The translations under genes were made by a program, and so were the position numbers. From the NCBI GenBank assembly GCA_017962125.1, contig JAGCVZ010000013.1, positions 18,509 to 82,508 on the forward strand: a DNA stretch of 64,000 nucleotides. Direction: 5' to 3'. Within the stretch, counting starts at the first letter, position 1, and the number at the start of each line of letters is the position of its first letter. This document shows positions 1,367 through 60,229 of this stretch, in pieces. Origin of the DNA: Alphaproteobacteria bacterium (GTDB taxonomy: Bacteria > Pseudomonadota > Alphaproteobacteria > Rs-D84). The notes beneath the pieces were generated by a model. It was not told where the DNA came from, did no database searches, and saw nothing but the letters and a program-made list of their open reading frames with translations.

Positions 1367-1394
1367 GATAGTGGTTAGTGTAAGTGGTTAGTGT
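1367..1394 (+). repeat. Genome-specific short repeat (TAGTGGTTAGTGTAAGTGGTTAGTG) immediately after the sspB stop
   Basis: Seen in sequence. The same motif recurs at 2483-2508, 3190-3215 (reverse complement), 6848-6858, 15533-15546, 16848-16875, 35527-35584 (as a palindrome) and 60218-60229. Confidence 0.7.
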
Positions 1395-1449
1395 CACCCA
1401 TGAATGCGGTCGGTTTTATTAGATTTTCAATACTTATAAATTTTACAAC

Positions 1450-1477
1450 CTTGCGTTTAATGCGTTTTTTGGTATAA
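1450..1477 (+). promoter_or_regulatory. Extended -10 sigma70-like promoter for cassette gene 1504..2163
   Basis: TTGCGT at 1450-1455, a 16-nt spacer, then TGgTATAAT at 1469-1477. An AAAAAGGA Shine-Dalgarno lies 7 nt before the ATG. Confidence 0.5.
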
Positions 1478-1503
1478 TTGCAATCAGAAAAAAGGATTTA
1501 TCT

Positions 1504-2163
1504 ATGTACAATTTTATTGGTAAAAACGGTGACAGTTTTGAAGCTTATTGGGTAATACACGGCCATCCGCGTGGCGAAGAAGACAATACCGACAGAACAG
1601 ACCCGCCTGTATTTCGTCAATATCTATCTAAATTTCATACTCCAGAAAGCACTTTAGATTATACAACCCCCGGTGAAACATTCATAAAAAAAGAAGTACC
1701 TGGTCTTACTGGTGGTTTTGCATATACATTTGCTCGTACTGGAATATATGGGAATCAGGGCGACAGACCAGGGACTAATTATGGTGCAGTAACAGTTATT
1801 ATGGACGATATGGATGAAAAAAGCACTGAACAATTCGAAAATGATTTAAAGGAATGGTTTATCGTCAATATATTAAACAAATTTACTTATAAACACCCAG
1901 GTAAAGTTGGATGGCGCAAATGGGACATGAATGCCGATAAGTTATTCAATGGCGCTTATGACGAAAAATTAAAAAATTCTATAGAATCTGTCATAAAACC
2001 GTATTTGGAAATAACCGCTTTGAAATCTGGCAACACAAAGGATATTGATAAGTACAAAGTAGCAACTGAAAGACTGCAAGCCGAAATAGAAAGATTAGAA
2101 CAACAAAGAGACGATCTCAATCGACAGATTGCCGAAAAACGCCGAGAATTAGCAAACATGTAA
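1504..2163 (+). CDS. Hypothetical cassette protein with a coiled-coil C-terminus, inserted downstream of sspB
   Basis: 219 aa ORF with its own promoter and RBS. No family recognised. The C-terminus is heptad-like (ERLQAEIERLEQQRDDLNRQIAEKRREL). Diverged copies of the sspB 3' end bracket it. Confidence 0.6.
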   Translation: MYNFIGKNGDSFEAYWVIHGHPRGEEDNTDRTDPPVFRQYLSKFHTPESTLDYTTPGETFIKKEVPGLTGGFAYTFARTGIYGNQGDRPGTNYGAVTVIMDDMDEKSTEQFENDLKEWFIVNILNKFTYKHPGKVGWRKWDMNADKLFNGAYDEKLKNSIESVIKPYLEITALKSGNTKDIDKYKVATERLQAEIERLEQQRDDLNRQIAEKRRELANM

Positions 2164-2338
2164 ATTTTTTATGATTTAGAGTGGTTTGTTTATTTTTTAT
2201 ATTATGATAAGAGCATGTTAAAACTTTTTTAAATACGCGAAATCGTTCTGGTTTCACAATCGTCTCATTTTATACAAAAATCGTATCATTTTTTGAGACG
2301 ATTTATGCCTGCGTCATAGTACAAACCGGCGCAATGCG

Positions 2339-2440
2339 CCGGACAACGATATAGAATTACCACTGGATGGCACCGGTGACACAATTCCCGACGACGGCCG
2401 CGTTGTGTCGTTAGATGAGTTTAGGAAAAGAAAGAAATAG
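2339..2440 (+). repeat. Second, diverged copy of the sspB 3' end (last 33 codons plus stop); att-like duplication
   Basis: Aligns with 1264-1364 and encodes the identical peptide DNDIELPLDGTGDTIPDDGRVVSLDEFRKRKK. About 13 substitutions separate the copies, all synonymous, and TAA becomes TAG. A CCGGCGCAATGCGCCGG hairpin (2326-2342) abuts the left edge. Confidence 0.85.
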
Positions 2441-56676: not shown

Positions 56677-56765
56677 TATTAAATCTCCTTTATTTTTTCC
56701 TTTTTCTTTGACAATTATACCACAATTTGCTATGTTTTTGATACAAAAAAAGAAAGGACTTTTCA

Positions 56766-59165
56766 ATGACAGTTAATAATGAATATACTGGTGATTCAAT
56801 TAAAGTTTTAAAAGGGTTAGAGGCTGTAAAAAAACGCCCTGGAATGTATATAGGTGATGTGGGTGAGGGTGGGTCTGGTTTGCATCATATGATTTACGAA
56901 GTTGTGAACAATTCTATTGACGAGGCAATGGCCGGCTATGCTGATACGGTCTATGTTTCGTTGAATCCGGACGGTAGTGTTACAATCCGTGATAATGGAC
57001 GTGGTATGCCGTTTGATATTAACCATGAAACGGGTCGCAGTGCGTTGGAACTTATTATGTGTGAATTGCATGCTGGTGGTAAGTTTGATAACGAAGGAAA
57101 CGGTGCGTACAAGGTTTCTGGGGGGTTACATGGTGTTGGTGTGTCGGTTGTGAACGCGCTTTCAACATGGCTAAATGTAAGGGTTTGGCGTAGTGATAAA
57201 CAGGCGGAAATGTCGTTTGCCGATGGTGTGCCAACTATGGATTTAAAAGTTACGGAAAATAAGACCGGGTATGAACACGGAACAGAGGTTACTTTCTTGC
57301 CGTCCCCAGAAACATTTGCATCAACAGAGTTTAATTTTGATACACTTGAAAATTGGTTGCGTGAGCAATCTTACCTTAATGCGAATGTGCGGATTATCTT
57401 GGAAGACTTGCGCGGTGGTGAAAAAAAAGAACGCGAATTTCATTCAACTGATGGTCTTGCGGGGTTTGCAACATATTTGGATAAATCCAAAGAATTGCTG
57501 AATCGTGACCCGATTCAGATGATAAAGACAATTGATGATTCTTATATTGAAATCGTTCTGCAATGGACAACCGCGTATACTGAAACATCGCTTTGTTTTA
57601 CGAATAATATTCCAAATCGCGATGGTGGAACGCACTTGGCAGGATTTCGTGCGGGGCTTACACGTGCAATTAATAAATATATTGCCGAACAAAATACCAA
57701 GAAAGATATAAACCTTTCGGGTGAAGATTTTCGCGAAGGTTTAACAAGTATCATTAGTGTGAAAATTCCAGACCCTAAATTTGGTTCGCAGACCAAGGAT
57801 AAATTGGTGTCCAGTGAAGTTCGCCCAATTGTCGAAAATACTACGTCAGAATTGTTGTATCAATATCTGGAAGAAAACCCGGCGACTGCGAAACTTATTA
57901 TCGATAAGATTTTAGAAGCCGCCACCGCGCGTGAGGCGGCGCGCAAGGCGCGTGAACTTTCGCGGAAAAAGACAGGGCCAGAGCTTGGTGGTTTGCCTGG
58001 TAAACTTGCAGGGTGCAGTGAACGCGATCCGTCAAAGTGCGAACTGTTTATTGTTGAAGGGGATTCGGCAGGTGGTACAGCAAAGCAGGGGCGCGATAGA
58101 AAGACCCAGGCGATTTTGCCACTTCGCGGAAAAATTTTGAATGTTGAACGCGTCCGGTTTGACCGAATGTTGTCGTCTGATACGATTGGTGCGCTGATTA
58201 CGACAATGGGTGCGGGTATCGGCAAAGACGATTTCGATATCGAAAAAATGCGCTATCATAAAATTATCATTATGACCGATGCTGATGTCGACGGACAACA
58301 TATTCAAACACTGCTGATGACATTCTTCTATCGCCATATGCCAGAGGCGATACAGCGCGGTTATATCTATGTCGCGAAACCTCCGCTATACGGCGTAACC
58401 CGTGGCAAACAGCAGATTTATTTGCAAAACCAACGCGAAATGGACGACTATTTGATGGATCAATTGGCGACCGATGGCGTTGTGCAAATTGCGTCTGGAA
58501 CACAGATTTCTGGCGCGGATATGAAACGCTTGCTCGATTTGGTTTTGGATATGCGAAATGTCTTGCAACCACTGAATCATATTATGCCACTGCGGTTTGT
58601 AGAGGCATTGGCACTGAACCGTGTATTTGATGAAGAATCGGATGAAAACTGTGCGAATGCGGCAAAAATGTTAGATGCGCAAGAGTTGGAATTTGAACGC
58701 GGTTGGCATGTGACCGCGAACGATGCGGGTGTTACGATTACGCGTACACTGCGCAGTGTTACGGAAAGTTATTTGTTGTCGCGGGAAAAATTGAATTCGC
58801 CGGAAATCAATGCTTGGAGGCGTATGAATGGGCGTGAAGAATTGATGGAAACATTTTCTGCACCGACGGTACTTACTGTGAAGTCAAAGTCGCAAAAGAT
58901 TTGGGGGGCGTTTAATTTGTTGAATACCGCGTTCGAATATGCGAAAAATGGATTAAAGATTCAACGCTACAAGGGTCTTGGTGAAATGAACGCGGAACAG
59001 TTATGGGAAACAACAATGGACCCGAATCATCGCAGTTTATTCCAGGTTACAGTGAACGATGCAAGTCAGGCGGATGCTGTGGTTTCTATGCTGATGGGCG
59101 ACGTTGTTGAACCGCGCCGCGACTTTATTGTTGAAAACGCACTGGATGCGAATTTGGATGTATAG
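56766..59165 (+). CDS. gyrB: DNA gyrase subunit B
   Basis: GHKL ATPase motifs, Toprim EGDSAGG and C-terminal tail motifs. 799 aa. Confidence 0.95.
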
Positions 59166-59192
59166 TGTATGTTTTAAAAAGGAGCAAAATTT

Positions 59193-59519
59193 ATGTCTGA
59201 AAAATTTAAAGTTGATGAAAATGGTACAATTATATTTGATGACAGAAAAGATGAACCGCAAACTGAACACGATAAATTGATGGCGGAATATGTTACTTTG
59301 GAACACGATGTTGTGAACAGTATTGCACATCATACTGATGACCCGGTTAAGGTTGCGCGTTATCATGAATTGAAAGAGAAACTTGGTATACCAGATGCCA
59401 AAGATGTTTTTAAACAGGGGGAAAACGTATTAACCGAAGCCGAAAAAACAGAAAGAGAATCTGATAATGCTGAATTTTGGAACTTGGTTAAAAATTTCAA
59501 AAATGGTGGCAAAAAGTAA
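59193..59519 (+). CDS. Hypothetical acidic protein
   Basis: 108 aa with a GGAG RBS. No family recognised. Confidence 0.4.
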   Translation: MSEKFKVDENGTIIFDDRKDEPQTEHDKLMAEYVTLEHDVVNSIAHHTDDPVKVARYHELKEKLGIPDAKDVFKQGENVLTEAEKTERESDNAEFWNLVKNFKNGGKK

Positions 59520-59521
59520 AC

Positions 59522-60229
59522 ATGTTCACTGCAAATTGGTTCTTTGATTTAGAGAAAAAAATAAAAGATTTGGGCGCAGACAGTGACGCCCAATCTTTTG
59601 ATGAAATTCGTGAAATGTTGTCGCGGCCGCGGCGATTTTCGGCTGATGAATTTGCGACCATGTGTGTCTATGTGATTTTGGCGGGCGGGTTTTCGCAGAA
59701 AACCGCAAAGCGGATTCATAAAAACATAATGGAATATATTTATAAAAATGGTGCGAATTTTGATGCGTTGTTTCAAATATTTCATAATAAAAATAAAGTA
59801 AGCGCTATTTGTAAAATATGGGAAAACAGGACAGGACTGTGCAATGGCTTTTATAATTGCGCAACGGATTCAGAAAAACTTATTTATTTATCAAAATTGC
59901 CACATATTGGAAAAATAACTGCGAATCACCTTGGGCGGAATTTGGGAATTGATGTGGTAAAATATGATGTTTGGATTCGTCGTTTAGGCGCGCTATACGC
60001 CGGAATTAGCCGTACGGACGATTTGACACCGGAAATAAAAACGGCATGTGATGATATGTTTGCGCACCTGGTGCATGAAACGAATTTGCCACGGGGATAT
60101 ATTGATGTGGTGTTATGGAAGGCGTGTCAGCTTAAATTGATTTCTATGGATTTCTGCTTGCGGTCGGTAAAGACTCTCCCGGCCTTCGGCCACCCATCCG
60201 CAGGAGAGGAACTGGCTACTAACCACTAA
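59522..60229 (+). CDS. HhH-type DNA glycosylase-like protein
   Basis: 235 aa. LSKLPHIGKITANHLGRNLG resembles a helix-hairpin-helix GPD motif. Adjacent to ung. Tentative. Confidence 0.35.
   Translation: MFTANWFFDLEKKIKDLGADSDAQSFDEIREMLSRPRRFSADEFATMCVYVILAGGFSQKTAKRIHKNIMEYIYKNGANFDALFQIFHNKNKVSAICKIWENRTGLCNGFYNCATDSEKLIYLSKLPHIGKITANHLGRNLGIDVVKYDVWIRRLGALYAGISRTDDLTPEIKTACDDMFAHLVHETNLPRGYIDVVLWKACQLKLISMDFCLRSVKTLPAFGHPSAGEELATNH

Follow-up and report, generated by a model that had tools for sequence, protein, structure and literature searches.

What is the short G/T-rich motif that recurs at the 3′ ends of genes in a 64,000-nt stretch of DNA (hereafter the window) from an alphaproteobacterium of the order Rs-D84 (NCBI GenBank assembly GCA_017962125.1, contig JAGCVZ010000013.1, positions 18,509 to 82,508 of the forward strand)? 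The first-pass annotation regarded it as genome-specific and proposed either a dispersed element resembling repetitive extragenic palindromic (REP) sequences and acting as a terminator, or the recognition core of a recombinase that inserts cassettes. Genomes of this order measure ~0.75-1.0 Mb, of which ~90% is coding, and members of the order are suspected to depend on a partner (PMC12306168). The window contains the core genes recF, sspB, accBC, mreB, metG, mnmG, ileS, pheST, topA and dnaG, as well as a VirB4 homologue.

The best explanation, to which we assign a probability of roughly 0.55, is a new mosaic repeat of Rs-D84, similar to REPs and their hairpin-forming doublets (REPINs) or to miniature inverted-repeat transposable elements (MITEs), with harmless, stop-rich and C-free arms that punctuate gene ends and frame cassettes. 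The motif would be the arm of a clade-wide, non-autonomous intergenic repeat that occurs singly or as a head-to-head pair, and that may be tolerated because it is harmless, its multi-frame stops sparing the adjacent genes. The arrays would have been spread by a trans-acting enzyme. It may have been co-opted as gene-end punctuation by supplying a multi-frame stop and an unstructured spacer ahead of terminators, to which doublets would add a long stem. Arrays of the motif would also serve as the outer frame around slots insulated by terminators, and lineages would swap accessory cassettes in these slots through homologous and microhomology-mediated recombination, with no site-specific recombinase at work on the motif. 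The family described here is new and is, in kind, a variant of known intergenic repeat systems. A literature search for the motif returned primer-type chance matches only, and Rfam at gathering threshold over the whole window matched four tRNAs and none of the arrays.

A stop-rich repeat arm at gene ends

The repeat consists of tandem 6/7-nt units, [T/A]AGTG(G)(T). Its fullest form in the window, TAGTGGTTAGTGTAAGTGGTTAGTG, is found at 1369-1393, with a near-identical second copy at 2486-2510, and the master arm, (T)TAGTGGTTAGTGTAAGTGGTTAGTG(GTTAGTG), is ~25-33 nt long, G/T-rich and without any C. Arrays contain 3-9 AGTG cores, most commonly 4-5, at a spacing of 7-6-7(-7). In the window, AAGTGGTTAGTG with at most one mismatch was matched six times (0.16 expected) and GTGGTTAGTG 13 times (2.5 expected). 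Arrays of at least two units numbered eight versus 0.36 expected from 100 dinucleotide shuffles, which never gave more than two; one of the eight, at 12506 inside a gene, is probably due to chance. The motif was present, within ~3 nt of the positions first reported, at all eight sites where the first-pass annotation had placed it. Five of these sites are listed here and the others below.

1369-1393, plus strand: array A1, TAGTGGTTAGTGTAAGTGGTTAGTG, four units, beginning 4 nt past the sspB stop codon (1362-1364)
3195-3220, minus strand: array A3, TAAGTGGTAAGTGTTAGTGATTAGTG, whose first TAA is the accC stop codon (3218-3220)
6846-6857, plus strand: short array TAGTAGTTAGTG, a weak match that starts with the mreB stop codon and is followed by a terminator at 6864-6886
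15532-15544, plus strand: short array AAGTGTTAGTGGG, covering the mnmG stop codon and the two codons before it (...KC-stop)
60216-60229, minus strand: short reverse-orientation array CTACTAACCACTAA, whose TAA terminates an OGG-like open reading frame (ORF)

That the motif can be built into the final codons holds for several genes, since translation confirmed the C-termini ...ELLV-stop of dnaG, ...KIKC-stop of mnmG and ...ELATNH-stop of the OGG-like ORF. The last of these (59522-60229; E = 8e-16 against the PADLOC OGG model) owes its last ~26 amino acids to repeat modules and the reverse array, as shown by comparison with locus L010, where the orthologue ends earlier, at a sense array.

Clade-wide array statistics were obtained from 0.93 Mb of sampled loci (L-numbered) plus the window. 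TAG or TAA is present in ~95% of the units. Among arrays of at least 18 nt, 86% have stops in all three sense frames and 21% in all six frames, compared to 0.26% of random windows. With TAG or TAA in the units and a 6/7 spacing that shifts the frame, any ORF entering an array is halted within a few codons, and a doublet of arrays stops ORFs from either side. The multi-frame stop content would explain why arrays are kept out of coding sequence and of most divergent (promoter) spacers, and why they directly adjoin stop codons and in many cases provide them.

Indeed, 233 of the 249 arrays (94%) are intergenic, and the remaining 16 fall within ORF calls, mostly at ORF ends or in spurious ORFs. Array density is ~4.1 per kb in convergent spacers, 2.2 in tandem and 1.0 in divergent ones. 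Of the arrays, 36% begin between -12 and +20 nt from the stop of an ORF on the same strand, and 31 provide the gene's stop codon with their first unit. Array-adjacent stops were TAG in 58, TAA in 27 and TGA in four cases (TAG 65%), versus a background of 191, 746 and 259, respectively (TAG 16%). This TAG excess indicates that arrays commonly donate the stop of the gene. The REP-like part of the initial proposal is therefore borne out, as the motif is an intergenic repeat concentrated at gene 3′ ends. An alternative genetic code was rejected, as TGA is in use as a stop codon, and so was a Chi or KOPS-like (FtsK orienting polar sequence) polar signal, as both orientations are common inside one skew domain.

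The terminator function, on the other hand, could not be upheld. The array has neither a GC-rich stem-loop nor a U-tract; it contains no C, and the lone arm stayed unpaired in RNA folds, for example at the accC and sspB sites. GC-rich hairpins and T-runs adjoin the array and do not lie inside it. A GC-rich hairpin abuts 52% of arrays (~8% of random positions), but only 20% are followed immediately by a canonical hairpin with a T-run, and 6% are immediately preceded by one. No terminator and no inverted partner is near 40% of the arrays, many arrays are placed after a terminator or far from ORF ends, and arrays also occur within operons, for example in the rpoB-rpoC spacer of eight species. Arrays may nevertheless benefit termination or mRNA stability.

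Nor is the repeat specific to one genome. The exact 18-mer TAGTGTAAGTGGTTAGTG occurs in more than 115 non-orthologous stretches of GTDB species representatives. Among the matches listed for TAGTGTAAGTGGTTAGTG, all are gut or rumen Alphaproteobacteria or Candidatus Enterousia metagenome-assembled genomes of the order Rs-D84, from dozens of species. Around the 18-mer, conservation is strong for one unit upstream (TAGTGGT) and weak for one further unit on each side. Certain gene ends always carry an array, namely that of mreB (window, L061, L007, L018, L129 and L131) and that of dnaG (window, L084 and L109). The arrays at these ends differ in how many units they have, where they stand with respect to the terminator and which modules accompany them, and this variation at orthologous ends indicates that arrays turn over much faster than the flanking coding sequence.

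A scan of a viral collection for the repeat gave one match, L116 (IMGVR_UViG_3300031993_006245). In this contig a 3.4-kb opposite-strand segment with a DnaB-like helicase, an array-module-array element and a helix-turn-helix (HTH) regulator interrupts the gene of the terminase large subunit (1763-6669), separating its N-terminal part (1763-2365) from its C-terminal part (5806-6669). L116 is probably a prophage remnant in a host contig, and as such it is poor evidence for phage carriage of the repeat.

Inverted doublets and mosaic partners

Arrays frequently occur in inverted pairs of fixed polarity. Among neighbouring arrays within 150 nt of each other, we counted 51 head-to-head (+/-) pairs and a single tail-to-tail (-/+) pair. 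Doublets vary between sites in the sequence of their interior and in its size, from 5 nt up to more than 1.8 kb; most enclose only 5-45 nt, and gaps of 36-42 nt are the most frequent. The inverted arms bracket a short loop, a 36-42-nt palindromic module, an intrinsic terminator or a whole accessory gene. Between or beside the arms we found a 36-nt AT-rich palindrome (CTGGAATAATTTCGTAATTACGAAATTATTCCAG), tgtgcggcNNNNgccgcaca hairpins, GC-rich REP-like hairpins, a 75-nt GC-rich module and bidirectional terminators. Doublets fold into strong stems and lone arrays are unpaired. In the window, the end of dnaG carries such a doublet:

35527-35541, plus strand: sense arm TTAGTGTAAGTGGGT, holding the dnaG stop codon together with the two codons before it
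35542-35569, no strand assigned: GC-rich inner segment between the two inverted dnaG arms
35566-35589, minus strand: antisense array TGTGATTAGTGTAAGTGGGTAGTG, whose TAG at 35581-35583 is the stop of a convergent 246-aa ORF

The perfect inverted repeat reported at this site was confirmed, with 15-nt arms at 35527-35541 (plus) and 35570-35584 (minus), and the whole doublet folds at -32.1 kcal/mol (z-score -4.9).

The rpoB-rpoC spacers of eight species (L003, L025, L046, L051, L085, L045, L062 and L081) consist of a sense and an antisense array around a 7-9-nt loop, together forming a ~23-bp hairpin without a T-run. This doublet could be an mRNA processing or stabilising site in an essential operon. 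Of the 23 pairs of the rpoB-rpoC hairpin, none had changes on both sides, so covariation does not point to any RNA structure under selection other than the repeat itself.

Whole genes can also lie between the arms. A four-helix-bundle gene (TIGR02436, Avd-like) is located exactly between inverted arrays in L009 (5249-5673), L014 (1065-1490) and L068 (6781-7188), and its stop codon comes from the reverse array. We rejected this ORF as a mobile unit, as all three copies lie upstream of lepA and are thus orthologous. A small GIY-YIG-type ORF (L006, 6457-6840) adjoins an array and a palindromic module, and three related copies are present among the loci. The 75-nt GC-rich module, TCCGCCTTCGTCCGTCATCGC...GCCAGGGCTTTGCCCCGGCTTGG, follows sspB in L124, L127 and L130 and mreB in L007, L129 and L131; it sits between stop codon and array, with an inverted copy at the far side of the cargo.

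Several other features of the window were recorded. A VirB4/TrbE-type ATPase, a type IV secretion component (36215-38632), adjoins the dnaG doublet and belongs to a lower-GC stretch at 36-46 kb (GC 0.29-0.35). A second dispersed palindromic module, CCGGCTTTTTTG...CAAAAAAGCCGG, occurs at 15251-15293, 23353-23435 and 39843-39885. Within mnmG, the copy at 15251 codes for ...LPAFLNKMNKKAG..., residues also found in the MnmG of L007; the choice is between an ancient in-frame insertion and a resemblance due to chance. A direct-repeat cluster at S41 peptidase genes (43474-46357) contains a 180-nt repeat at 99% identity (43593-43772 and 46178-46357) and several repeats of 50-93 nt, and the second 180-nt copy abuts a tRNA gene (46355-46428).

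The sspB-accC hot spot and partial gene copies

The cassette idea was assessed at the sspB-accC spacer (window 1365-3217), which we compared in ten lineages whose SspB protein is identical to that of the window, retrieved by exact-protein look-up. Their sspB DNA is 92.5-95% identical to the window, and in one case 100%. The spacer is empty in two lineages and filled in eight, with six different cargoes:

L129, L131: empty, TAA-GTACAAC-TTA, a 7-nt spacer with no array and no terminator
L123: the 172-aa cassette alone
L125 (the state of the window): the 219-aa and 172-aa cassettes
L124, L127: Fic protein
L126, L132: HTH protein
L128: hydrolase
L130: 72-aa ORF

Six of the eight filled lineages have the full frame, that is stop, array, terminator, cargo, terminator, inverted array and stop. 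In the two Fic lineages (L124 and L127) the arrays are weak or one-sided, and ~90-nt inverted ends abut both stop codons. The empty-site genomes have arrays at other places, for example at mreB. Lineages with different cargoes share the array and terminator frame, and homology between them stops at the inner terminator edge and not in the arrays, which indicates that the arrays are the outer frame and not the crossover point. The 172-aa and 219-aa cargoes are unknown proteins. Searches of the three window cassettes against Pfam, PADLOC and NCBIfam gave no informative matches, scans of cassette and window ORFs revealed no recombinase in or near the cassettes, and an exact-protein look-up of cassette 3 found the same context in every sample and no alternative site. 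The features of the window at this hot spot, and at the mnmG site, are the following:

1394-1417, plus strand: decayed terminator hairpin, homologous to the intact terminator at 2510-2536, with no significant fold
2330-2440, plus strand: sspB′ copy, 36 codons plus TAG stop, compared to 1254-1364 86% identical in DNA and 100% in protein
2438-2448, plus strand: array head TAGTGGGTAGT, the first TAG of which ends the sspB′ copy
2449-2481, plus strand: GC-rich REP-like hairpin module CCGTCACGACC...CGCGACGG, inserted within the array; also in L061, L086 and L112
2486-2510, plus strand: array A2, TAGTGGCTAGTGTAAGTGGTTAGTG, downstream of the sspB′ copy
2510-2536, plus strand: intrinsic terminator GCCGCCCGCATTTGCGGGCGG followed by T5, the left frame terminator of the hot spot
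3172-3194, minus strand: accC intrinsic terminator AAACCGGCGCACTGCGCCGGTTTT, the right frame terminator (-21.1 kcal/mol, z-score -4.05)
16777-16853, plus strand: mnmG′ copy, 86% DNA identity, with one V-to-I change and the final Cys lost
16851-16875, plus strand: array TAAGTGGTTAGTGGTTTAGTTAGTA, which starts with the mnmG′ stop codon and is orthologous to the L007 array after mnmG

The partial 3′-end copies, sspB′ and mnmG′, point to the way in which cassettes may have entered. The sspB duplication runs on through the array and the terminator, of which the first copy has decayed. At its left junction, the hairpin CCGGCGCAATGCGCCGG, the 5′ part of a terminator of the right-frame type (AAACCGGCGC...GCGCCGGTTT), is fused to sspB at GCACCGG, which gives a microhomology of GCGCCGG/GCACCGG between terminator stem and sspB coding sequence. 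L007 has the cassette-free mnmG arrangement, with mnmG, the array and the neighbouring gene. All, or nearly all, of the differences between the copies and the full genes are synonymous, which suggests that the copies evolved within working genes of another lineage. Template and variable repeats of a diversity-generating retroelement were rejected as their source, as the differences are synonymous and not adenine-specific. From the junction sequences we infer that sspB′ and mnmG′ are scars of recombination with DNA of another lineage. The duplication events look like homology-anchored recombination between two hot-spot alleles, joined at microhomology, and do not look like site-specific recombination at the motif.

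The cassette idea thus stood in part. Arrays do frame variable cassettes and are absent from the two empty sites, but a role as recombinase recognition core is not supported, given the arrays at many conserved gene ends without a cassette, the homology breaks at terminators, the sspB′ junction within sspB coding sequence and the lack of a recombinase in the cassettes.

Known repeat systems and alternative explanations

In length (20-35 nt), density (~1 per 7-8 kb) and position (intergenic, downstream of genes), the repeat resembles the REP sequences, bacterial interspersed mosaic elements (BIMEs) and REPINs of E. coli, Pseudomonas and Neisseria, which are mobilised by REP-associated tyrosine transposases (RAYTs). 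The likeness extends to many copies confined to intergenic DNA (eight versus 0.36 expected in the window; more than 115 loci; 233 of 249 arrays), to frequent inverted doublets of fixed polarity (51 versus 1) and to mosaics with other motifs, as in BIMEs and in neisserial intergenic mosaic elements (NIMEs). The (G/T)TAG in the unit recalls the GTAG head of REPs. REPINs persist for long within a lineage (bioRxiv 10.1101/2021.07.10.451892), and so does the Rs-D84 repeat. In contrast, each REP copy is an imperfect palindromic hairpin and the Rs-D84 arm a C-free tandem array of 6/7-nt units; moreover, only the latter has stops in all frames and doublets that can enclose whole genes.

Correia elements, the MITEs of Neisseria, are likewise intergenic, have terminal inverted repeats that form mRNA hairpins, as do the inverted arms here, and have no transposase assigned. 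Their end TATAGTGGATTAACAAAAATCAGGACAA (terminus TATAGTGGATTAA...) shares the hexamer TAGTGG with the Rs-D84 unit, possibly by coincidence. They differ by a fixed length of ~100-155 bp with a uniform interior, compared to 5 nt to more than 1.8 kb here, and by a TA target duplication, which is not seen at sspB-accC. Closer to the hot spot are neisserial dRS3/NIME repeats and minimal mobile elements, in which a short repeat frames variable modules between conserved genes. The sspB-accC site itself, as distinct from the motif, behaves like a minimal mobile element: the same flanks hold alternative cargo or none, apparently exchanged by recombination with related lineages. The clade nevertheless differs, the sequence is unrelated, and the mechanism of exchange in Rs-D84 is deduced only from junction scars. 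Mobile insertion cassettes such as MIC231 of Bacillus cereus also carry passenger genes without transposase between inverted repeat ends, but these are the ends of known insertion sequences and make target duplications, whereas the Rs-D84 junctions point to homologous or illegitimate recombination.

Other known systems were rejected. DNA uptake or uptake signal sequences (DUS/USS) are exact 9-12-mers at ~1 per kb and also lie in genes, whereas we found ~1 array per 7 kb, 94% intergenic and variable in unit number. An integron attC site has RYYYAAC on the left and GTTRRRY on the right, opposite to the order GTTAGTG...CACTAAC in 51 of 52 pairs, and GTTAGTG deviates from GTTRRRY at the last two positions; no integrase was present among the scanned window ORFs. 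A Rickettsia palindromic element is in-frame and intragenic, whereas only 16 of the 249 arrays are in ORF calls and arrays touch only the last 1-7 codons of genes.

Several observations weigh against a REP- or MITE-like repeat with a punctuation role. The lone arm is not a palindrome, unlike classical REPs. A phmmer query for a RAYT or transposase with IS200 TnpA reached at best E = 0.07 in the 0.93 Mb of loci plus the window, a weak test. From the comparison of empty and filled sites no target-site duplication could be defined; filled sites abut both stops, do not retain the 7-nt spacer and have no direct repeat, and no clean presence/absence polymorphism of an array without cargo was documented. 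About eight of the 64 gene ends in the window (~12%) bear arrays, and none across 36-59 kb, so punctuation is not a general role. The loci were picked with the 18-mer TAGTGTAAGTGGTTAGTG itself, which biases the conservation estimates. Finally, streamlined genomes have kept an exact 18-25-mer order-wide at conserved sites, for example at rpoB-rpoC, and a sequence-specific host factor could be what selects for it directly.

This last point leads to the alternative of a selected cis signal read by a sequence-specific host factor, either a DUS analogue or a 3′-UTR site for a multimeric RNA-binding protein, which could read the spaced UAG/AAG triplets. It would account for the persistence of the exact 18-25-mer over dozens of species of a genome-reduced clade, for its recurrence at the same gene ends (rpoB-rpoC in eight species, mreB in 4-6, dnaG in three) and for arrays that flank terminators and frame cassettes with scars of recombination with foreign DNA, and lone arrays are single-stranded in RNA folds. 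In Neisseria, DUS surround minimal mobile elements in an arrangement like that of the array-framed cassettes. We consider this alternative doubtful, given the sparse and intergenic arrays (known uptake sequences reach ~1 per kb, also inside genes), a unit number varying from 2 to 9, the stretch of 36-59 kb without any array and the lack of an identified receptor or binding protein; the strict 51 to 1 polarity, too, is needless for an uptake signal. The same polarity would be expected if the arrays, some extended by the 75-nt module, were terminal inverted repeats of mobile cassettes or sites of a recombinase or transposase acting in trans. Whole genes between inverted arrays (the four-helix-bundle ORF in L009, L014 and L068 and six of the eight sspB-accC cargoes), the empty sspB-accC site without arrays and the ~90-nt inverted ends of L124 and L127 touching both stop codons agree with such cassettes. 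However, different cargoes share one frame, with homology breaking inside it at the terminators, and sspB′ and mnmG′ carry 75-110 nt of the flanking gene from another lineage, with junctions in coding sequence, which is not what transposition would yield. In addition, there was no target-site duplication, no recombinase nearby in the cassette and window ORF scans and no cargo at two non-orthologous sites (the four-helix-bundle copies are all upstream of lepA), and most doublets enclose just 5-45 nt. These points make mobile cassettes quite improbable.

An immobile translational backstop or spacer, similar between sites through convergent selection and slippage seeded at TAG/TAA stops, is the least probable of the explanations that we weighed. 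Stops in all frames, arrays flush with stops and strongly enriched for TAG there, a variable unit number as slippage predicts, and the OGG-like ORF, which lost its own stop and was rescued by a reverse-orientation array, all fit a backstop. Stops alone, however, need neither an invariant GTG(G)T spacer nor an identical 18-25-mer at more than 115 unrelated sites, and many arrays lie past a terminator or distant from ORF ends, or join other dispersed modules in mosaics. We favour the REP/REPIN- or MITE-like mosaic repeat.

For practical purposes, the 18-25-mer is usable as a clade marker, and gene callers should take into account that C-termini and stop codons beside arrays may be repeat-derived. 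With respect to the biology of Rs-D84, the junction scars at sspB-accC point to a route by which accessory genes enter tiny genomes. We think it unlikely that the arrays are a dedicated order-wide cis signal with a sequence-specific reader, whether as an uptake/recombination tag on landing pads or as the ends of trans-mobilised cassettes without transposase; if true, such a tag would mark terminator-insulated landing pads at core-gene ends, by which these symbionts swap accessory cassettes. The host is an uncultured, genome-reduced gut clade, in which purging of non-coding DNA is expected, and tandem stop-codon units that halt frames from either side, an uncommon design for REP- or MITE-like elements, may explain how the element survives in a genome that is ~90% coding.

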